A stretch of DNA of 34,429 nucleotides, from the IMG/VR virus record IMGVR_UViG_2693429554_000013; one strand, 5' to 3'. This document shows positions 1 through 20,239 of the stretch, in pieces. The stretch's first letter is position 1, and each line of letters starts with the position of its first letter. The translations under genes and the position numbers were made by a program. Under the pieces are notes generated by a model. That model was not told the origin of the DNA. It ran no database searches and saw only the letters and a program-made list of their open reading frames with translations. Origin of the DNA: a virus. Taxonomy: Duplodnaviria; Heunggongvirae; Uroviricota; Caudoviricetes.

Positions 1-1002
1 TTACCCTCTATTGTCAAAAGGGTTCAATTCAACAGCAGCCTCTAAATGACCTGGAGCAAAATGCGCATAACGCATAGTCATTTTTATATCGCTATGCCCC
101 AGTATTTTTTGCAACACAAGAATATTTCCGCCCCGCATCATAAAATGACTGGCAAACGTGTGACGTAGCACATGAGTTAATTGCCCATCAGGAAGCTCGA
201 TCTTCGCTCTCTTAATTGCAGCGTCAAAAGCCTCATAACATGGTGAAAATAGCGCTCCTCGTTTTTTGGGAAGCATAGCCTGCAATTGAGGTGAAATCGG
301 TACAGTGCGGTTCTTCTTTCCTTTAGTTTTAACAAATGTGATTCGACCGGGCAGTACTTGAGATTGCTTTAATCCTTCTGCTTCACTCCACCGAGCACCA
401 GTCGCAAGCCCAATACGGACAACAACCCCCAAATCTTTATTCCGTGACTCATCACACGCAATCAGAAGGCGTTCAATCTCATCTACATACAGAAACGCCA
501 GTTCCTTTTCTTCCTCACGAAACTTGCGAATACCAGTCAGGGGGTTTTCACCAGACCACTCCCCAAGGCGCTTCAGTTCGGCAAAAACAGCATGTAGATA
601 TGACTGCTCGCGATTAACGGTTGCTTCACTAAGTTTTTTCTTCCCCTTGGGATTCCATTCTCCTGATAGCCTTCTTTCCCGATAAGTGGCAAACATATTT
701 TTGTCAAACTGAGAAGCAAATGGATCTCCCAGCCTGGAACAAATCGCCTCAAGTTTGACTTTGCGCTCTGCACCAGAGGACAAGGTTTTACCGTACATCT
801 CAAACCAACGAGCAATCAACTCAGAAAGACGAGGACCAGAACCATCTTGAAACTCGTCTCCAACTCTACTATTCATTAAACGGCGCTCATAAGAGAGCGC
901 CTCACTTTTTGTCGCAAACTGTTTACGAATGCGTTTTCCCGATGCCCCGTAGGGATAACATTCGCAAAGCCATTTACCTGATGGAATCTTACGAACCGAC
1001 AT
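1..1002 (-). CDS. int: Phage tyrosine integrase / site-specific recombinase
   Basis: 333 aa; C-terminal catalytic-like region ...HVLRHTFASHFMMRGGNILVLQKILGHSDIKMTMRYAH (R, H-x-x-R and terminal Y motifs typical of tyrosine recombinases); ATG at 1002, stop at 1-3. Confidence 0.9.
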   Translation of the reverse strand: MSVRKIPSGKWLCECYPYGASGKRIRKQFATKSEALSYERRLMNSRVGDEFQDGSGPRLSELIARWFEMYGKTLSSGAERKVKLEAICSRLGDPFASQFDKNMFATYRERRLSGEWNPKGKKKLSEATVNREQSYLHAVFAELKRLGEWSGENPLTGIRKFREEEKELAFLYVDEIERLLIACDESRNKDLGVVVRIGLATGARWSEAEGLKQSQVLPGRITFVKTKGKKNRTVPISPQLQAMLPKKRGALFSPCYEAFDAAIKRAKIELPDGQLTHVLRHTFASHFMMRGGNILVLQKILGHSDIKMTMRYAHFAPGHLEAAVELNPFDNRG

Positions 1003-1007
1003 TTTAG

Positions 1008-1355
1008 TTACTTATCACACAAATCAAATGCAGCCTTAGTGACATCCCCCAGGCTCTTTTTTAACCCTGGGGCGGCATCATTATCTAGCCAAAATGGATT
1101 ATTGTTATCTAACGGTAACGCACCAAATGTTTTACCTTTTATTCGAGCCAAACCTGTAAGTGCATATAACTTATTATCGTCAAAATTCATCACATAAGGA
1201 TTACCATCAAGACACTGTAATTGAACCTCATCAGTATTAAATGGCCATACCCCATTGAAACTCTCACATTCAATAGTTTTAAAAGGCATTGCGACGGCGG
1301 AAAAAGAAAACATAGATAAAAAAGTAACTAATAGTTGAACCTTTTTTACTTTCAT
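1008..1355 (-). CDS. Small secreted/periplasmic protein of unknown function (probable moron)
   Basis: 115 aa; N-terminal signal-peptide-like segment MKVKKVQLLVTFLSMFSFSAVA; several Cys in mature part; AT-rich by eye. Confidence 0.6.
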   Translation of the reverse strand: MKVKKVQLLVTFLSMFSFSAVAMPFKTIECESFNGVWPFNTDEVQLQCLDGNPYVMNFDDNKLYALTGLARIKGKTFGALPLDNNNPFWLDNDAAPGLKKSLGDVTKAAFDLCDK

Positions 1356-1384
1356 ATCATTACCTCAATTTAGCTCAAGTAAGA

Positions 1385-2035
1385 TTACAAATTAAAAAAC
1401 GCCCTAGAAATGACACCGCCTACCAAAACCCCTACGCAGATAAAGAATATTATTTCTTTTGGATAAAGCCGGATTAATTCTGAAGCACGAAGTCGGACTT
1501 CTGGTAAGGTCGAACTCTCTGTGTGGCTTGATGCCGATTGTTGCTCTAACCACGACAATGCAGACTGTAACTGAGAACGAGTAAGATCGTTTAAACGTCC
1601 TGTACCGAAATTGATATGGCAATACCGCAGAAGTTTTTGTCGAAGTCCACAGTCTTCACTGTTACGTAGTAATAAACTTACAAGAGCCTTACAGGCATCA
1701 TGATCTTTACATCGCTCAAGCATTGCATGCAGAAAACTCTCCGCTGTTTTATATTGATTTACTGTCATATCATCAATACCAGCTACACCAATCTCCGCAT
1801 GTACTTTTTGCCAAATAATAAACGCTTCAGTAGTGCTAGCTTCTGCAATAGCAGCAACCAAGCTATTTAGCTCCTTACGCTGAGCCTTAAGCAAAGGGCG
1901 ATCGTCATCATCATTATTCGAAGGGATTGCGATATTGACGGTATGAGAACCATCATATCGCTCTATCTGAATATTCTTTTCGTGAAAATCACGCCCAGCA
2001 ACGCGATTGTTTGAACCGTTTGAGTTGACGGCCAT
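1385..2035 (-). CDS. Tail-anchored membrane protein, unknown function, co-oriented with repressor
   Basis: 216 aa; single C-terminal hydrophobic helix IIFFICVGVLVGGVISRAFF; N-terminus NSNGSNNRVAGRDFHEKN resembles the repressor C-terminus; starts 15 bp after the repressor stop. Confidence 0.65.
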   Translation of the reverse strand: MAVNSNGSNNRVAGRDFHEKNIQIERYDGSHTVNIAIPSNNDDDDRPLLKAQRKELNSLVAAIAEASTTEAFIIWQKVHAEIGVAGIDDMTVNQYKTAESFLHAMLERCKDHDACKALVSLLLRNSEDCGLRQKLLRYCHINFGTGRLNDLTRSQLQSALSWLEQQSASSHTESSTLPEVRLRASELIRLYPKEIIFFICVGVLVGGVISRAFFNL

Positions 2036-2050
2036 GTCACCTCCCTACTA

Positions 2051-2455
2051 TCACCTACCCTTAGTTTCGTTATAGTCACGACCAGCGATACGGTTATTAC
2101 CACCAGAAATATTTAACTCACGTCCTGATGGCTGAGTTTCCTTTTCACTGATCGCACCTTTTAAAGCCCCAATCACCGCGTTTTTCACATCTAACGAAGC
2201 TGCTCGAAAGCGAGTAATCAACTCCTGCTCATCATCGTTATAAGTTTCAGGTGAGTGAATTCCCAACACAACATACTGAACATCAAGGCCAAAACGAGAC
2301 AGCGCTGCCAAATACGCAGCATCAGGAAAGCTATCTCCTTTCTCATATCTAAGCTGAGTTAGCTTTTTGACTCCACCAATGTCGCTCATGGCAACTTGAC
2401 TAAGTCCCAATCTTTCCCTTTCCTCACGCAACCGCTGACCAATATCATTTTTCAT
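2051..2455 (-). CDS. XRE-family HTH transcriptional regulator, probable prophage immunity repressor
   Basis: 134 aa; N-terminal HTH IGQRLREERERLGLSQVAMSDIGGVKKLTQLRYEKG; divergent from early operon, next to int as in P2/186. Confidence 0.75.
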   Translation of the reverse strand: MKNDIGQRLREERERLGLSQVAMSDIGGVKKLTQLRYEKGDSFPDAAYLAALSRFGLDVQYVVLGIHSPETYNDDEQELITRFRAASLDVKNAVIGALKGAISEKETQPSGRELNISGGNNRIAGRDYNETKGR

Positions 2456-2470
2456 ACAAAAACCTTGACA

Positions 2471-2488
2471 GGTATCTTTTTTGATACC
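2471..2488. promoter_or_regulatory. Perfect palindrome GGTATC-N6-GATACC directly after a TTGACA hexamer (2465-2470); candidate operator of the immunity switch
   Basis: Read in the 75-bp divergent intergenic region between the repressor (start 2455) and the first early gene (start 2531). Confidence 0.4.
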
Positions 2489-2530
2489 AAAATGATTTCA
2501 CGAGCTATTAGATGATCACAATATACCACT

Positions 2531-2737
2531 ATGAAACAAGTTCTTCACGATACCAGATCACGCATTCCGCGTAACACCGCCACAGGTCCAAGACTGGCAC
2601 TTCGGCTGTCCCTCGAGGAGCGAGCCGTCATTGATGAAATGGCAGCTAAAGAACAACGCTCATCCTCTAACATGGCGCGCATGATCTTCCTTCGCGGCCT
2701 AGAGCTAACCCAGAAAGAACAAAACAAATCTTCCTGA
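2531..2737 (+). CDS. Small ribbon-helix-helix-like DNA-binding protein; putative Cox/Cro-like early regulator
   Basis: 68 aa; LALRLSLEERAVIDEMAAKEQRSSSNMARMIFLRGLE fits a strand-helix-helix pattern; first gene of the divergent early operon; no clear SD. Confidence 0.55.
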   Translation: MKQVLHDTRSRIPRNTATGPRLALRLSLEERAVIDEMAAKEQRSSSNMARMIFLRGLELTQKEQNKSS

Positions 2738-2753
2738 TCAGGAGGCTAGTGGG

Positions 2754-2957
2754 ATGTCAGGTATAACCATCAATATCAATGTGAATGCCCCCTATGTATC
2801 CCTGCAGAAATATGCAGAGATAACAGGTATCCCTCTTAATACGTGCAAAAAGATGTTGGCTGACGGTCGAATTATTATCCGCCCCAAACGCGCCAAAATG
2901 GAAAAGCCTGAAGTAAACCTTGTGGCGATGTTAAAAGACGCTTTGGCTAACAGCTAA
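2754..2957 (+). CDS. Small HTH DNA-binding protein (excisionase/regulator-like)
   Basis: 67 aa; HTH-like YVSLQKYAEITGIPLNTCKKMLADGRI; AGGAGG-like RBS upstream. Confidence 0.6.
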   Translation: MSGITININVNAPYVSLQKYAEITGIPLNTCKKMLADGRIIIRPKRAKMEKPEVNLVAMLKDALANS

Positions 2958-2978
2958 AACAATGAACAGAGCACCATC

Positions 2979-3329
2979 ATGAAAAAAAACGCTAATAATC
3001 CATACTCCAAATTTCGTAATGGCGTAGAACGCCATGCTAACCGTTTCGCTACCAGCGCATCACGTAGCAGCTCTCGCTACAGCCTGAGCGAAACACACGC
3101 AACGCCGGATGGCTACCCAGTAAAACAAATCGGCGAGCATACCTGGCTGATTGAGAAAGCTGGAATCGTGATCCACAAATGCCCACGCAATCCGTTTACC
3201 GGAAACCGCATTTTTGCACTGAGCAGCGGCGACAATCAGTTCGGGCAGGATTTCACATTATACGAAGCACTTCGCACGGTTGATCGTCTGCTTCGCGGGC
3301 AAAGTTTTATTAAACAGGCTGATTTATAA
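2979..3329 (+). CDS. Hypothetical early protein
   Basis: 116 aa ORF in the early operon; no recognisable motif. Confidence 0.5.
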   Translation: MKKNANNPYSKFRNGVERHANRFATSASRSSSRYSLSETHATPDGYPVKQIGEHTWLIEKAGIVIHKCPRNPFTGNRIFALSSGDNQFGQDFTLYEALRTVDRLLRGQSFIKQADL

Positions 3330-3339
3330 CAGGTGTTTT

Positions 3340-3627
3340 ATGACCAAAGACCATGCACAAGGTGTATTTATCCGTTTTATTGATTTTCGCGGTGAACTGT
3401 TATTACGTGCATCCGCTATTGACGGAGTGACTCCGGCGGGTAAAAACGGAGCCGACGAAGCCACTTACGTTTATCTGAACGGCACGCGACTGCTTGTGGA
3501 ACTTCCGTACCAGACCGTACGAGAAATCATTAGCGAAGCTGAAAAGGCACACCAGGTTAATGGCGATGAACCCTATATCGAAATTATTTGTATGGATTCA
3601 GAAGCTGAAATACAGAAAGCAGATTAA
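3340..3627 (+). CDS. Hypothetical early protein
   Basis: ORF track begins at 3280 overlapping the previous gene; ATG at 3340 chosen as more plausible start. Confidence 0.45.
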   Translation: MTKDHAQGVFIRFIDFRGELLLRASAIDGVTPAGKNGADEATYVYLNGTRLLVELPYQTVREIISEAEKAHQVNGDEPYIEIICMDSEAEIQKAD

Positions 3628-5385: not shown

Positions 5386-5476
5386 GTAACCACTATGTAC
5401 ACACAAAAAAACCGCTTGCCATGCCGCAATCAGTCAGGTTACATTTCCGCTGCACCTCATAAAACGGGTGCCGGGA

Positions 5477-5694
5477 TTGGAACCCCGCTGACTATACACG
5501 CGCACAACCGCGCCAGCGGTTTTTTTGTGCGTACCGTATCGCCACGTCTTTTTCGCGTCAGAATTATGGTGGGGCGTATGGGGCCGACTTCGGTCGGGCC
5601 GGGTTCGTGTATAGCCGGTAGTTCCAACCCTGTACGTCTCACCACCCCGAGCTTGGAACCTCTGGATGGTGAGTTTTCAAAACTTACTATACAC
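5477..5694. repeat. Three copies of a bipartite motif TTGGAAC(C)-N-CTATACAC (two direct, one inverted) flanking a UUCG-loop hairpin
   Basis: Copies at 5477-5499 (direct), 5607-5629 (inverted), 5653-5694 (direct); hairpin CCGAC-TTCG-GTCGG at 5584-5597. Confidence 0.45.
5506..5527 (+). terminator. Candidate Rho-independent terminator
   Basis: Short GC stem ACCGC/GCGGT with GCCA loop followed by TTTTTT; the stem is short. Confidence 0.35.
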
Positions 5695-5705
5695 GAGGCC
5701 ACACC

Positions 5706-5936
5706 ATGGCAAACCGCAAACAGCACCGCGCTATCGCGGAGCGTCGTCACATCCAGACTGAAATCAACCGCAGACTTTCCCGCGCATTCCGCGTCGCTAA
5801 AATCATGCACATCAATATGCTGCATGAGCGTAGCTGCGAACTTTCAAACCTCTACTCATCCGCTGTTTTCAGCTATCTGGCAGATGATCTGCGCGAGCTT
5901 CAGCAGCTCATCCAGCAGCAAAACAAACTCCATTAA
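5706..5936 (+). CDS. Hypothetical small basic protein
   Basis: 76 aa, charged/helical composition; preferred over the overlapping low-complexity ORF 5395-6012. Confidence 0.5.
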   Translation: MANRKQHRAIAERRHIQTEINRRLSRAFRVAKIMHINMLHERSCELSNLYSSAVFSYLADDLRELQQLIQQQNKLH

Positions 5937-6008
5937 TTCTGGTTCCGGGCCTTTCCTGCACCTTGCGGCGGGAGGCCTTCGCACATCTGTAACAAGAGGA
6001 TTGCCGCA

Positions 6009-6374
6009 ATGATTCTCGCCAACGACTTTCTTGAATACCTGCTCAACACAGAGCGCGATCTTGCCGTTCGCGCGCGTGACCGTTATGACATGTACCTGAA
6101 ATCCCTGCCTGTACCACAGCCCGCTGACGGAAAGATTGTTATTGATGGCCGCTACATGATTGACAGCCACGAGGGAAATTACAGGCTTTACCGCATTGAA
6201 GGCGGCACCCCGTCCGTTATTGGCATTTACCAGCGCCCATCCTCTGCAATCGTCGATGTGATTGCAGACAGCATCCGCATCACACATCGCTATGCCGACA
6301 CAGAAGACACCGTGCTGGAAATTCAGCGGCTGGCTACAGTCTGCCGCGACACCCTGAACGGTATGACGAAGTAA
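6009..6374 (+). CDS. Hypothetical protein upstream of the replication gene
   Basis: 121 aa; RBS AGAGGA; no motif recognised. Confidence 0.5.
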   Translation: MILANDFLEYLLNTERDLAVRARDRYDMYLKSLPVPQPADGKIVIDGRYMIDSHEGNYRLYRIEGGTPSVIGIYQRPSSAIVDVIADSIRITHRYADTEDTVLEIQRLATVCRDTLNGMTK

Positions 6375-6380
6375 ATCACT

Positions 6381-9203
6381 ATGACGACAGAGTACATCAG
6401 GGACTGGCAACAACCGCGCCACGCAGTCGGTCGCGAAGGAACAGGGATCCCCGCACCTGAGTCTGCACTTTCCTCCTGGCTGGATGCCTACCGGACTGAG
6501 AACGAGCGCCGCCAGGAAATGGCTGATGCGGCGTTCTCCGCCACGCCGCTGGGCAACCTGATTAATAAAAGCCTGGACGCACAGGAAAAACAGGACAAAA
6601 CCATCACCCTGGCAGGAGATGCCAGAAAGCAGGCACGCGGCGCGGTGGATGAAGCCATGGCCTCGCTGCGCCTGCTGCCGTCCTATCTGCGCGATCCGCT
6701 TATTCGCCACCTCTCCTTCCTGCGCAAAAAACAGGAAGCCGATCGCCGGAAAGGCAAAAAGAGCTGGCAGGCTGAACGCTACGCGCGCGGAACCCTGCGC
6801 AAAATATTCGAACGTCTGGACCGCACCGACCACCGCTGGCTGACACCGGGTTATCGCTCCCTTGCAGGACGCGAACGCCTGGATGATTTGCTTTACCTGC
6901 CGCAGCTCAACAAGCACCAGATACAGACGCTGGCCACCATGACGGCGGCGATGTTCAGCAGCACCTTCGAAAAACTCTGCGATGGCTTTGGCGCGACTGA
7001 TGGCGAGCTGACCATGGATGTAACCCTGAAGGCGTATCAGATGCTGGCCCGCATGGCGTTACACCTGCACGCCATGCCTCCGCATTATGACGCACTGACA
7101 ACAGATAAAGACCGGAGGAACGAACCGGATACGGAGCTGCTGCCGGGCGCAGTCCTTCGCCTGACTTGTGCGGAATGGTGGAAACGCAAACTGTGGCTGT
7201 TACGTTGCGAGTGGAGAGAAGAACAACTCCGCGCCGCCTGTCTGGTTTCCAGAAAAACATCGCCCTATCTGAGCCAGGACGCATTAAGCGAGTTTCGCGC
7301 ACAGCGCGAGAAAACACGCGATTTCCTGAAAAGTTTCATGCTGGAAAACGAAGACGGGTTCACGATTGATCTCGAGACGGTGTATTACGCGGGAGTAAGT
7401 AACCCGGTTCACCGTAAGGCAGAAATGATGGCCACCATGAAGGGGCTGGAACTTCTGGCCGAAGCCCGTGGCGACAAAGCGGTGTTTCTGACCGTCACCT
7501 GCCCGTCAAAATACCACGCCACAACAGAGAACGGTCATCCGAATCCCAAATGGAACGGGGCCACCATGCGCGACTCCAGCGATTACCTGGTTAACACGTT
7601 TTTTGCGGCGGTCCGCAAAAAACTGAACCGCGACGGCCTGCGCTGGTATGGCATCCGCACGGTGGAGCCTCACCATGACGGCACCGTGCACTGGCACATG
7701 ATGGTCTTTGCTCATCCGGAAGAAATCGACAGCATCGTGGCCATCACCCGCGATATTGCCATTCAGGAAGACCGCCACGAGCTGGGCGATGACATAACTC
7801 CGCGTTTTAAGGCGGAGTACGTCGACGGCTCAAAAGGCACGCCAACCAGCTACATCGCCACCTACATCGGAAAGAACCTGGACAGCCGCGCCGTGGATGG
7901 CATCGACCCGAAAACGGGCAAGCCACGCGTTGACCACGAAACCGGAAAATCAATGGCCGAGAGTGTGGAACGCGCCATCGGCTGGGCGCGCCTTCACCGG
8001 GTCCGCCAGTTCCAGTTCTTTGGCATCCCCTCCCGTCAGGTATGGCGTGAACTCCGCCGCCTTGCCAGCCAGATGGCACGCAACCCGGAAGGCCCACAAC
8101 GGCTGAAGGATGATGCAATGGATGCGGTACTCGCTGCCGCTGATGCCGGGTGTTTTGCCACCTACATTGAGAAACAGGGCGGCGTACTTGTTCCACGCAA
8201 AGACTACCTGATTCGCACCGCCTACGACCTCGCAGATGAGCTGAACGATTACGGTGAACAGAGCGTACAGATTTACGGGATCTGGTCGCCGCTCATCGGG
8301 GAGTCTTCCCGCGTATGCACGCATCCGGATAACTGGAAGCTGGTAAGACGCAAACCGGAAGCGGAAGACAGCGCCCGCGAAAATGGTTTTGACCTTCAGG
8401 GCGGCCCTGCCGCCCCTTGGACTCGTGGCAATAACTGTCCCCATGTACAGGAAACGGACAACAACGGGACAGAACAGCCGGAAGAACGGCCAGCACCGTG
8501 GCCGCAGCTCCCTGGCGGCGTTGAAGTGAACGAATGGATGCGCTCACTGAAACGGCACGAACGCCGGGCGCTGATGCGTTCGCTGCGTGACAAGCAGGCA
8601 AAAAACAGCAGTGATGAAATGCAGAACTGGACACAGAGCCGCAAACAGCCACAGCCTTTGCCTGATAACCACGAATTACTCGCTAAAGAATGGCGGGAGT
8701 CTGCCGAATCTCTCGGCCTGCATATCGGTGAACAGCAGATGCAGCACCTGTTACGGGGCGGCAGCCTGTACGTTGACGGCAGCATCATTGCACCACAGGG
8801 ATTTGAAATTGTACGCAAACCGGATACCCGCCCGGACAGCCGAATCACACAGCTCTGGCAGCACCTGAGCCGTAATCACGGCGTAAGCAGCACGGAGATC
8901 CGCCATAACCCGGTCGCCAGCTATCTGGCACAGCTGGGGGCATCAGACCCCGAAGCCGCCGCACGTCTGGCATCCACACTTCAGCAGGACCAGAACACCA
9001 TGAAAACCCCCGTTACCGTGCTTTCTGACATGCTGCGCGTCATCCGTGACGCAGAGCACGCACAGAGAATCAGTGAAACAACTGAACGCGCCCGCCGCAA
9101 AGCAGACCTGCTGCGGGGTGGCCTGACCAGTGGAAACAAAAAACAGACAGAAACGGGATTCACAAATCCCGTAAATGAGCAAAAAACGCACCGCGATATA
9201 TGA
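6381..9203 (+). CDS. Rolling-circle replication initiator endonuclease, P2 gpA family
   Basis: 940 aa; metal-binding motif EPHHDGTVHWHMMVF and paired-tyrosine motif YIATYIGK typical of the P2 A / phiX174 A superfamily; long C-terminal region. Confidence 0.85.
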   Translation: MTTEYIRDWQQPRHAVGREGTGIPAPESALSSWLDAYRTENERRQEMADAAFSATPLGNLINKSLDAQEKQDKTITLAGDARKQARGAVDEAMASLRLLPSYLRDPLIRHLSFLRKKQEADRRKGKKSWQAERYARGTLRKIFERLDRTDHRWLTPGYRSLAGRERLDDLLYLPQLNKHQIQTLATMTAAMFSSTFEKLCDGFGATDGELTMDVTLKAYQMLARMALHLHAMPPHYDALTTDKDRRNEPDTELLPGAVLRLTCAEWWKRKLWLLRCEWREEQLRAACLVSRKTSPYLSQDALSEFRAQREKTRDFLKSFMLENEDGFTIDLETVYYAGVSNPVHRKAEMMATMKGLELLAEARGDKAVFLTVTCPSKYHATTENGHPNPKWNGATMRDSSDYLVNTFFAAVRKKLNRDGLRWYGIRTVEPHHDGTVHWHMMVFAHPEEIDSIVAITRDIAIQEDRHELGDDITPRFKAEYVDGSKGTPTSYIATYIGKNLDSRAVDGIDPKTGKPRVDHETGKSMAESVERAIGWARLHRVRQFQFFGIPSRQVWRELRRLASQMARNPEGPQRLKDDAMDAVLAAADAGCFATYIEKQGGVLVPRKDYLIRTAYDLADELNDYGEQSVQIYGIWSPLIGESSRVCTHPDNWKLVRRKPEAEDSARENGFDLQGGPAAPWTRGNNCPHVQETDNNGTEQPEERPAPWPQLPGGVEVNEWMRSLKRHERRALMRSLRDKQAKNSSDEMQNWTQSRKQPQPLPDNHELLAKEWRESAESLGLHIGEQQMQHLLRGGSLYVDGSIIAPQGFEIVRKPDTRPDSRITQLWQHLSRNHGVSSTEIRHNPVASYLAQLGASDPEAAARLASTLQQDQNTMKTPVTVLSDMLRVIRDAEHAQRISETTERARRKADLLRGGLTSGNKKQTETGFTNPVNEQKTHRDI

Positions 9204-19090: not shown

Positions 19091-20239
19091 ATGACATGGC
19101 CATCTGTCACGATTGAACAGTACAACACATTCAGCAGTTCACCGGACGGCGTGGAAAATACGCTGCTGTTTGTGGGCAATGCACAAAACAACAAAGGTAA
19201 GGTTCTGCCGGTTAATGCCAACAGTGATCTGGACGAGCTACTGGGAACGAAAGCCACCCCGCTGAAGAACTTCCTTCAGTCCGCACTGACCAATGCCGGA
19301 CAGAATGCCTTTTTCTATGTTGCCGTTCTGCCGGAAGCCGGCAAGGGCAAAGAAGCGACGCCAGCCTGCCAGGCATGGCAGAACGCCATACTGGCGGCTC
19401 AGGAAACTGTTTCAGTTGAAGGCGTGGTGATCACCGAACCGGTCAGCACGAAGGATGACATCAACGCCATACAGGCGTTACGTCAGACCATCATCAATAA
19501 ATATCAGCGCCGCATCTGGTTCATCCTGACTATCGCCGCCAACGACAACAGTAAAACCTGGGCGGAATACGTTGCCGAGCTGACCACGCTACAGAAAGGC
19601 ATTGCAGCCCCGCAGGTCATGCTGGTTCCGGAGATTTTTGGATTTGAACCGGGCGTTCTTGCCGGTCGTCTGTGTAACAGCGCCGTCACCATTGCTGACA
19701 GCCCGGCACGTGTGGCAACCGGGGCGCTGTCCGCACTGAAAACCACAGAGCGCCCGAAAGACAGCGCAGGGCAGGCAATTGATCTCGACACCCTGCAGGC
19801 ACTGGCAACCGCCCGCTACAGCGTGCCCATGTGGTATGCCGACTATGACGGTCTTTACTGGGCTGACGGTGTAACACTTGAGGTGGAAGGCGGGGACTTC
19901 AACGTCATTGAGCATGTCCGCATTGCTGATAAGGTGGCGCGCCGCGTGCGGCTGATGGCCATCCCCAAGATTGCAGATCGCTCGCTGAACAGCACACCGG
20001 GCAGCATTGCCGCACATGAAACGCTGTTTGCCCGCCCACTGCGTGCCATGGCGAAATCCACGCAGATTAACGGCATCACGTTTCCGGGCGAAGTGAAATC
20101 GCCCAAGAAAGGCGACGTGGTTATCACCTGGCAGGACGAAAAGACGGTCAGCATCAGCATTGTTGTCCGCCCTTACGCCTGCCCTAAAACCATCAAAGTG
20201 GGCATTCAGCTGGATAAATCTCTGGAGGAAAACGCATGA
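19091..20239 (+). CDS. Putative tail sheath protein
   Basis: 382 aa from ATG 19091 (RBS AGGAG); immediately precedes a ~150-aa tube-like gene. Confidence 0.5.
   Translation: MTWPSVTIEQYNTFSSSPDGVENTLLFVGNAQNNKGKVLPVNANSDLDELLGTKATPLKNFLQSALTNAGQNAFFYVAVLPEAGKGKEATPACQAWQNAILAAQETVSVEGVVITEPVSTKDDINAIQALRQTIINKYQRRIWFILTIAANDNSKTWAEYVAELTTLQKGIAAPQVMLVPEIFGFEPGVLAGRLCNSAVTIADSPARVATGALSALKTTERPKDSAGQAIDLDTLQALATARYSVPMWYADYDGLYWADGVTLEVEGGDFNVIEHVRIADKVARRVRLMAIPKIADRSLNSTPGSIAAHETLFARPLRAMAKSTQINGITFPGEVKSPKKGDVVITWQDEKTVSISIVVRPYACPKTIKVGIQLDKSLEENA

Follow-up and report, generated by a model that had tools for sequence, protein, structure and literature searches.

A P2-like prophage repressor and the membrane protein encoded by the next gene carry matching short terminal motifs

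The viral record IMGVR_UViG_2693429554_000013, a window of 34,429 nucleotides, is an Escherichia coli P2-like (Xuanwuvirus) prophage. At its left end the minus strand carries, in order, the genes for a repressor, a tail-anchored membrane protein (hereafter the partner) and a cargo protein, followed by int. This agrees with the repressor-operon position assigned to the membrane protein by an earlier reading of this DNA made without database searches (the sequence-only reading), which had also noticed that the end of the repressor resembles the start of the partner. We analyzed this pair of genes and the motif common to their products. The features of the pair are listed below.

2051..2455, minus strand: XRE-type helix-turn-helix (HTH) prophage immunity repressor, 134 amino acids (open reading frame, HTH matches and structure model)
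2060..2113, minus strand: repressor C-terminal motif NISGGNNRIAGRDYNETK, residues 115-132 (alignment)
2036..2050, minus strand: intergenic spacer of 15 bp with the Shine–Dalgarno sequence GGGAGGTG (sequence)
1385..2035, minus strand: tail-anchored membrane protein of the phage subfamily of the Flk_N family, 216 amino acids (open reading frame, PHROG 5825)
1973..2026, minus strand: partner N-terminal motif NSNGSNNRVAGRDFHEKN, residues 4-21, within the disordered residues 1-41 (alignment and model)
1526..1900, minus strand: helical Flk_N domain of the partner, residues 46-170
1388..1462, minus strand: C-terminal transmembrane anchor of the partner, residues 192-216, hydrophobic stretch EIIFFICVGVLVGGVISRAFFNL

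The two genes lie on the same strand and, as had been claimed, are separated by exactly 15 bp, within which the Shine–Dalgarno sequence ahead of the partner gene is strong. No terminator-like site was found between positions 900 and 3000, so repressor and partner are likely cotranscribed. The repressor ends ...ELNISGGNNRIAGRDYNETKGR, and the 216-amino acid partner begins MAVNSNGSNNRVAGRDFHEKN. Alignment of the two motif copies gave 10 identical residues out of 18, the count already made by the sequence-only reading, and their local BLOSUM62 score of 62 (shuffled proteins, 29.1 ± 4.8) was reached by none of 5000 shuffles. The DNA encoding the two copies has only 32 of 54 bases in common (59%), and 6 of the 10 identical residues are specified by different codons. 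Since the DNA has diverged and the protein match has been kept, the resemblance does not stem from gene conversion or, as that reading had also held, from a recent duplication of DNA. A regular-expression search of every other frame of the 34-kb window found no credible further carrier of the motif; the lone extra match, in a short noncoding frame at 19555-19644, is spurious.

The motif is conserved on both sides of the pair. Across 21 homologs of the partner (58-84% identity), residues S5, G7, N10, R11, G14, D16, and E19 are invariant, and about 60 homologs of the repressor end in N[VI]SGxGNR[VI]AGRD[YF]xExK. The P2-like version of the motif can be written N-x-S-G-x-x-N-R-h-A-G-R-D-h-x-E. Two scans of viral contigs, one with alignment A1 and one with an alignment of repressors (A3), yielded 83 distinct pairs, which were reduced to 20 tail classes; a homolog search with a mixed P2-like and Mu-like alignment (A2) returned mostly known P2-like proteins and added little. 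Over the 20 classes, the summed score of cognate tails and N termini was 729, compared with 478 ± 36 for permuted partners, and none of 20,000 permutations reached it. About 16 of the 20 tail classes were matched.

P2-like phages of E. coli and Klebsiella carry the NRxAGRD motif, and Klebsiella and other E. coli prophages have a clearly different repressor HTH with the tail and partner gene kept. Mu-like phages carry variants of QxFxGxVxQVAGxDIxN. Mu-like prophages, which have rve transposase and AAA_22 genes to one side and holin and SLT genes to the other, carry other repressor tails, and each time the next gene starts with the matching variant. Five of the matched pairs read as follows.

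Pectobacterium: repressor tail QIFNGDISGQFAGNQIIN; partner N terminus QEFNGTAQGQFSSRDIIN
Gilliamella: repressor tail NNTIRGEGQIAGGNIY; partner N terminus DNTAEQIAGRDIY
Pseudomonas: repressor tail QQFNGPVGTVTSGDVVN; partner N terminus QQFHDRVHQVAAGDIKN
Cultured phage B3, ORF18/ORF20: ISVTGDGNRTAGRDFHE versus IEVTGSNNIVAGRDFIE
Cultured phage BcepMu, gp17/gp18: QEQVFHGSVGQAVKVEGN versus KQEFNKPVGQAIQAGEAN

Further matched pairs are present in the cultured phages Ps59 (gp17/gp18), KS10 (gp13/gp12), and Burkholderia vB_SR4 (gp24/gp25). In most pairs the intergenic distance is between −4 and +33 bp, that is, a short gap or overlap. Repressor homologs without the motif tail (Dobby gp35 and the repressor of locus L173) also lack such a partner. 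The sequence-only reading had proposed a comparison of homologous pairs as a test; in every lineage examined such pairs sit together, with the motif present and covarying. Its suggestion that the partner N terminus is functionally related to the repressor tail is, at the level of sequence, strongly supported. In Ralstonia phage RS-AB1 (L182:2208-2701), a motif-tailed repressor is followed by an annotated ORF of only 68 amino acids, which corresponds to the transmembrane helix and periplasmic cysteine domain of a partner; the N-terminal part seems to have been lost or frameshifted.

The shortness and biased composition of the motif could be taken to mean that the similarity is due to chance or is a functionless relic of an old duplication. 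Neither the shuffles nor the permutations reproduced the match, however, and the key residues are invariant among the partner homologs. Across classes, the DNA copies are 58% identical, and a common codon is used for 53 of 118 identical residues; this divergence beneath a conserved protein match points to selection on the protein, and gene conversion as the cause of the similarity was rejected on the same values. The relic or chance explanation is already contradicted, and we give it next to no credence.

Alternatively, both motifs could be read by a third factor, for example a chaperone, an adaptor, or a protease such as FtsH, Lon, or ClpXP, with the partner N terminus competing with or mimicking the repressor tail and thereby setting repressor stability. 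Both motifs lie at disordered termini, like degrons, and the C-terminal tails of other phage repressors govern their stability, as that of Mu Rep does with ClpXP. Since the prophage has no third motif-bearing ORF, such a factor would be host-derived. However, both motif classes occur within single host genera, in Pectobacterium (P0159/P0174 and P0171, with NRxAGRD-type and QxFNG-type pairs) and in Pseudomonas (B3 and L015), each with its own matching partner. Recognition by a conserved host factor would be expected to keep the motif constant within a host, and the coexistence of classes argues instead for specificity within the pair. The composition of the motif, described next, is that of beta-stacking motifs and not of known degrons. 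We regard a third factor as quite improbable.

In its general form the motif reads Q-x-F-x-G-x-V-x-(G/Q)-h-A-G-x-D-h-x-N and spans 17-24 residues. Relative to background it is enriched in N (3.0x), G (2.1x), Q (2.1x), V (1.4x), and I (1.3x) and depleted in L (0.2x), P (0.2x), and K (0.4x). Dyrka et al. described the same compositional bias in bacterial amyloid signaling sequences and beta-helical proteins; in their pairs, a C-terminal motif recurs at the N terminus of the product of an adjacent collinear gene, with tiny gaps or overlaps, and the protein with the N-terminal motif is the sensor and that with the C-terminal motif the output (bioRxiv 10.1101/2020.01.06.895854). Amyloid formation has been demonstrated for Bab/Agp, an E. 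coli prophage defense pair with the BASS11 motif (bioRxiv 10.1101/2024.11.07.622273).

The repressor–partner pairs resemble these systems (HET-S/NWD2, BASS Bell-domain/NLR pairs, and Bab/Agp) in several respects. A C-terminal motif is matched at the N terminus of the adjacent collinear gene product, gaps or overlaps are tiny, several motif classes exist that are each matched within the pair, the partner domains vary, the composition is biased toward N, Q, G, V, and I and away from L, P, and K, and one of the two proteins is at the membrane. BcepMu gp18 and the partner at L158 carry several motif-like rungs as against one in the repressor, a likeness to the pseudo-repeats of HET-s-type effectors. 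The differences are equally clear. Neither an NLR/STAND or TPR sensor nor a Bell or HeLo effector is present, the C-terminal motif is borne by a DNA-binding prophage repressor, the motif has 17-20 residues versus about 25, and the module lies in a lysogeny switch and not in a defense island. By the comparison of sequences, then, the pair has the genomic arrangement and composition of amyloid signaling motif pairs and lacks their NLR or Bell component.

The sequence-only reading recognized no known family for the membrane protein, which proved incorrect. Residues 1-210 match PHROG 5825 (E 1e-102), Pfam PF27202 (Flk_N) is precomputed on homologs that are 98-100% identical as well as on more distant ones, and BLASTP against Flk of E. 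coli K-12 (b2321) aligned residues 45-165 with residues 26-146 (E 2e-10, 28% identity). The single C-terminal transmembrane helix predicted by that reading was borne out by a hydrophobic helix at the extreme C terminus (residues 192-215 of the AlphaFold2 model). A search of 1.84 billion cluster representatives with a PF27202-family profile found only 135 clusters, which fall into two groups. The first comprises true Flk proteins of 330-490 amino acids that begin with MQPxSGP, contain two repeats, and lack the motif; the second comprises phage-type proteins of 180-330 amino acids, nearly all of which start with a Gly/Asn/Gln-rich motif. On these sequence grounds the 216-amino acid protein is a member of the Flk_N family and not an ortholog of Flk. 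It is prophage-encoded and has one repeat and another N terminus, whereas Flk has about 330 amino acids, two repeats, and the MQPxSGP start and is chromosomal.

Flk (RflH, 'Fluke'), a tail-anchored protein that inhibits the flagellar late-secretion switch, holds the flagellar export gate in its early mode and binds the FlhA cytoplasmic domain in a two-hybrid assay (PMC13344023). Its likeness to the phage protein extends beyond the Flk_N homology of residues 45-165: in both, a cytoplasmic domain is placed on a C-terminal inner-membrane anchor, and both probably act by holding a cytoplasmic protein domain. Given this homology, the common tail-anchored layout, and the binding of Flk to FlhA, the phage protein might act as Flk does on the flagellar type III export gate, in a form of lysogenic conversion to which the motif would be incidental. 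We consider this very improbable. The phage proteins have one Flk_N domain and not two, share only 28% identity with Flk in our alignment, and adjoin a repressor, whereas Flk lies beside pdxB and has a Pro/Gly-rich N terminus without the motif; the motif match is kept with partners that have no Flk_N at all, and the covariation of tails and N termini would be left unexplained. As a separate observation, weak PHROG matches to residues 49-107 of the 216-amino acid protein were to Ant-type anti-repressors, and P0368, a 270-amino acid phage regulator of the Rha family (Phage_pRha, E 6e-26), contains a match to the first half of the Flk_N profile, a hint that anti-repressor proteins and Flk_N may have a segment in common.

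Partners fall into four kinds. The first consists of tail-anchored Flk_N proteins, as in the window and many other loci. The second consists of small proteins with two transmembrane helices and no Flk_N (L128, L160, L165, B3 ORF20, and Ps59 gp18). Partners of the third kind (L137, L158, L156/157, L162, L152, BcepMu gp18, and vB_SR4 gp25) combine an Flk_N-like segment or a coiled coil with one transmembrane helix and a small periplasmic two-cysteine domain. A soluble Flk_N-like protein, as in KS10 (gp12), makes up the rare fourth kind. Of the matched partners examined, all except one are predicted membrane proteins. Because the motif match is kept with partners that lack Flk_N, among them the small two-helix proteins and the coiled-coil partners at L137 and L158, the motif appears to be a portable adaptor and not a ligand of Flk_N, and Flk_N as a general receptor for the motif was rejected for the same reason.

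The periplasmic domain occupies the ~45 C-terminal residues after the transmembrane helix, follows the pattern C-x-[FY]-x-G-x-x-[YF]-[SA]-x-G-x(10-14)-C-x(8-12)-W, and recurs in L137, L158, L156, L157, L162, L152, and L179 (BcepMu gp18). It shows a faint match to DUF1496 (E 0.0035 on P0350) and may be a sensing part. Deposited phage records name the partners 'hypothetical', 'membrane protein', or 'alpha/beta hydrolase' or leave them unannotated. The last of these names was given to vB_SR4 gp25 (L183:2260-2982), the sequence of which consists of the motif, an Flk_N-like segment, a transmembrane helix, and the periplasmic two-cysteine domain; the label is probably a misannotation.

The XRE-type HTH spans residues 5-64 of the repressor; two further helices (74-105) lead into a disordered tail (105-134), where the motif lies. 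The Pfam matches of the repressor (HTH_31, E 8e-5; HTH_3, E 1e-3) both lie under the Pfam gathering cut-offs, and it belongs to PHROG 8, 'transcriptional regulator' (E 2.5e-14). In the AlphaFold2 model (mf5e14145533c), the five-helix HTH has a predicted local distance difference test score (pLDDT) above 90, and residues 105-134 fall below 50, as do residues 1-41 in the model of the partner. Disorder of both termini in the monomer models is what would be expected of a motif that folds only on association. The gene lies where P2 has C, with the Arc-like and Cox-like genes running divergently. In Mu-like phages the repressor has an equivalent place, opposite a Ner-like gene and the transposase, and depositors label the B3, KS10, and Ps59 homologs as repressors. 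On these sequence comparisons, the 134-amino acid protein is a predicted XRE-type immunity repressor.

The sequence-only reading had drawn attention to an Ala-Gly dipeptide in the motif, which might hint at LexA-like cleavage. No S24 peptidase domain was found in the repressor by Pfam, the model shows the HTH, two helices, and disordered tail alone, and the alanine is a serine in many partners. A self-cleaving repressor of the LexA/CI type was rejected on these grounds, and the Ala-Gly of the motif is not a LexA-type cleavage site. A search for SOS control gave a single LexA-box match, which lies inside a long ORF and is at chance level (29 of 100 shuffles), and an SOS-controlled antirepressor likewise found no support.

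These observations suggest that repressor and membrane partner are directly coupled, motif to motif, with a regulatory role, and we put the chances that they are so coupled near even. In this model the repressor and the next gene product would together make up an immunity module of two proteins, linked by matching short motifs, each disordered as long as its protein is alone. The repressor C-terminal copy and the cytoplasmic N-terminal copy of the partner would bind each other directly by beta-strand or stacked-beta (cross-beta) pairing, so that the DNA-binding repressor would be tethered to an inner-membrane protein coexpressed with it in the lysogen. The partner could then hold, sequester, or switch the repressor on a membrane or envelope cue. 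Binding itself, the kind of beta assembly formed, and the direction and biological outcome of the signal are inferred. In amyloid pairs the protein with the N-terminal motif is the sensor, so by analogy the membrane partner would be the sensor and the repressor the output, and many partners have periplasmic domains, as would suit a sensor.

Gene order offers a precedent for such a regulator. In the ImmR-ImmA-Int operon of ICEBs1 and phage phi105, an XRE-type repressor, a dedicated regulator, and then the integrase are encoded on one transcript. ImmA is a soluble metalloprotease that cleaves ImmR; it is present in the repressed state and activated after translation. The present operon likewise places an XRE-type repressor before a second gene and then the integrase, and the partner may be a lysogeny regulator or sensor cotranscribed with the repressor, as ImmA is with ImmR. 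Here, in contrast, the second protein is a membrane protein without a protease domain and is linked to the repressor by a common terminal motif. There are also precedents for controlling a DNA-binding protein by capturing it so that it is kept off DNA: the membrane sequestration of transcription regulators (Mlc by PtsG, and PutA) and, in VP882, the sequestration of a phage repressor by Qtip. Those systems differ from this one in relying on contacts of folded domains, with no matched terminal motif and no tail-to-head arrangement of genes.

The sequence-only reading had favored a candidate exclusion or defense effector expressed in the lysogen. In its present form, that explanation would have the partner act as an exclusion or abortive-infection effector that is triggered, through motif templating, by the repressor or by disturbance of the repressor by an incoming phage, much as Agp activates Bab or NWD2 activates HET-S, and that damages the membrane. 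The adjacent-gene layout and composition of the motif are those of amyloid pairs, among them an E. coli prophage defense pair; the partners are membrane proteins, some of them small two-helix proteins like known abortive-infection effectors; and the gene occupies a position like that of rexAB. The likeness to lambda cI-rexA-rexB lies in this position downstream of the repressor, the expected expression in the lysogen, and a membrane component, but there is no sequence relation to the pair, and to our knowledge RexAB has no motif in common with CI and does not bind it.

Against an effector stand the absence of any match of the membrane protein to PADLOC-DB v2 defense models (the repressor gave only generic HTH-level matches, to RmrA and a control protein) and the relation of Flk_N to Flk, a nontoxic regulator. 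In P2-like and Mu-like phages alike, the pair stays with the immunity repressor and does not travel as a free cassette; the variable cargo slot follows the pair. The amyloid-pair analogy itself would make the repressor, as carrier of the C-terminal motif, the target and not the trigger, and the periplasmic domains suggest sensing. We consider an exclusion effector unlikely. In our analysis, partners with periplasmic domains and the ImmR/ImmA-like gene order speak no less for a sensor or regulator of the repressor than for an exclusion role.

Several observations weigh against direct coupling of repressor and partner at the membrane. The NRxAGRD class is short (17-18 amino acids) and contains conserved charged R, D, and E residues, which are less typical of amyloid cores. 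KS10 gp12, a matched partner, has no predicted transmembrane helix, so membrane anchoring is not universal. The tail classes of L176, L174, and L159 have no matched partner within 2.5 kb; the tail may therefore also work alone, for instance in repressor self-association. Within a motif class there is no residue-by-residue covariation, and no member has a known phenotype.

A bolder version of direct coupling, to which we assign only a small likelihood, is that a templated, amyloid-like (stacked-beta) switch controls the lysis–lysogeny decision. A membrane or envelope cue would cluster the partner, and its N-terminal motif would nucleate a cross-beta assembly that recruits the tails of repressor dimers; the repressor would be taken off DNA, or locked on it, in an all-or-none and self-propagating manner. 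If true, this would be without precedent, both as amyloid-type signaling that feeds directly into a transcription factor and as such signaling within a phage genetic switch, and the motif classes would serve as private channels for heteroimmune phages.

We found no literature linking phage repressors, Flk_N proteins, and shared terminal motifs, and nothing relevant on a connection between repressor, Flk, and amyloid, on prion-like prophage switches, or on BcepMu gp17/gp18; as far as searched, the occurrence of a shared-motif, adjacent-gene design on a phage repressor and membrane proteins is new. A conserved membrane partner linked to the repressor by a private docking motif would be a specific candidate for the little-known input by which non-SOS temperate phages (P2-like, B3-like, and BcepMu-like) sense when to leave the host. 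If direct coupling is correct, an adjacent-gene shared-motif design so far found in NLR-type immune and cell-death pairs would extend to gene regulation, and the poorly understood Flk_N domain would gain a second biological context. The matched pairs in cultured B3, Ps59, BcepMu, and KS10 make the idea directly testable.

The remaining features at the left end of the window are the following.

2456..2530, no strand: divergent control region, candidate operator (promoter-like site and palindrome; putative function)
1008..1355, minus strand: secreted DUF2511 protein, a variable cargo gene outside the pair (Pfam DUF2511, E 6e-6)
1..1002, minus strand: tyrosine integrase, the last same-strand gene (Int_N, E 5e-32; Phage_integrase, E 2.5e-22)

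Arc-like, Cox-like, and DUF4761 genes face the repressor operon on the opposite strand. In the control region, TTGACA at 2465 marks a rightward promoter-like site, and a perfect palindrome, GGTATC-N6-GATACC (2471-2488), overlaps its spacer; further GATACCA half-sites lie at 2483 and 2549. From their sequence, the palindrome and half-sites are candidate repressor operators.

The slot between the partner gene and int, which holds the DUF2511 gene here (1008-1355), holds a DUF8087 protein gene in other E. coli (L005:4840-5097) and, in Klebsiella, a gene for a 288-amino acid protein with a BRCT-like N terminus (L001:4647-5513). This slot has the look of a moron or hotspot site. Positions 1000-2500 form a block that was found in 521 of 5426 complete E. 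coli genomes (about 10%), and the Klebsiella version of the locus is indexed in 1158 assembly blocks.

Bases 1-3400 of the window are 97% identical to Escherichia phage 520873 (Peduoviridae, Xuanwuvirus), and the sequence to the right of them resembles P88-like phages. In the record of phage 520873 (NC_049344.1, L177), the membrane-protein gene is unannotated, and tblastn recovers it in three pieces within 2040-3080; the integrase is divided into two coding sequences, and the record looks like a decaying prophage copy. Farther into our window, at 5395-6917, long ORFs overlap on opposite strands (205 amino acids on the plus strand and 353 on the minus strand), upstream of a 940-amino acid ORF at 6381-9203.

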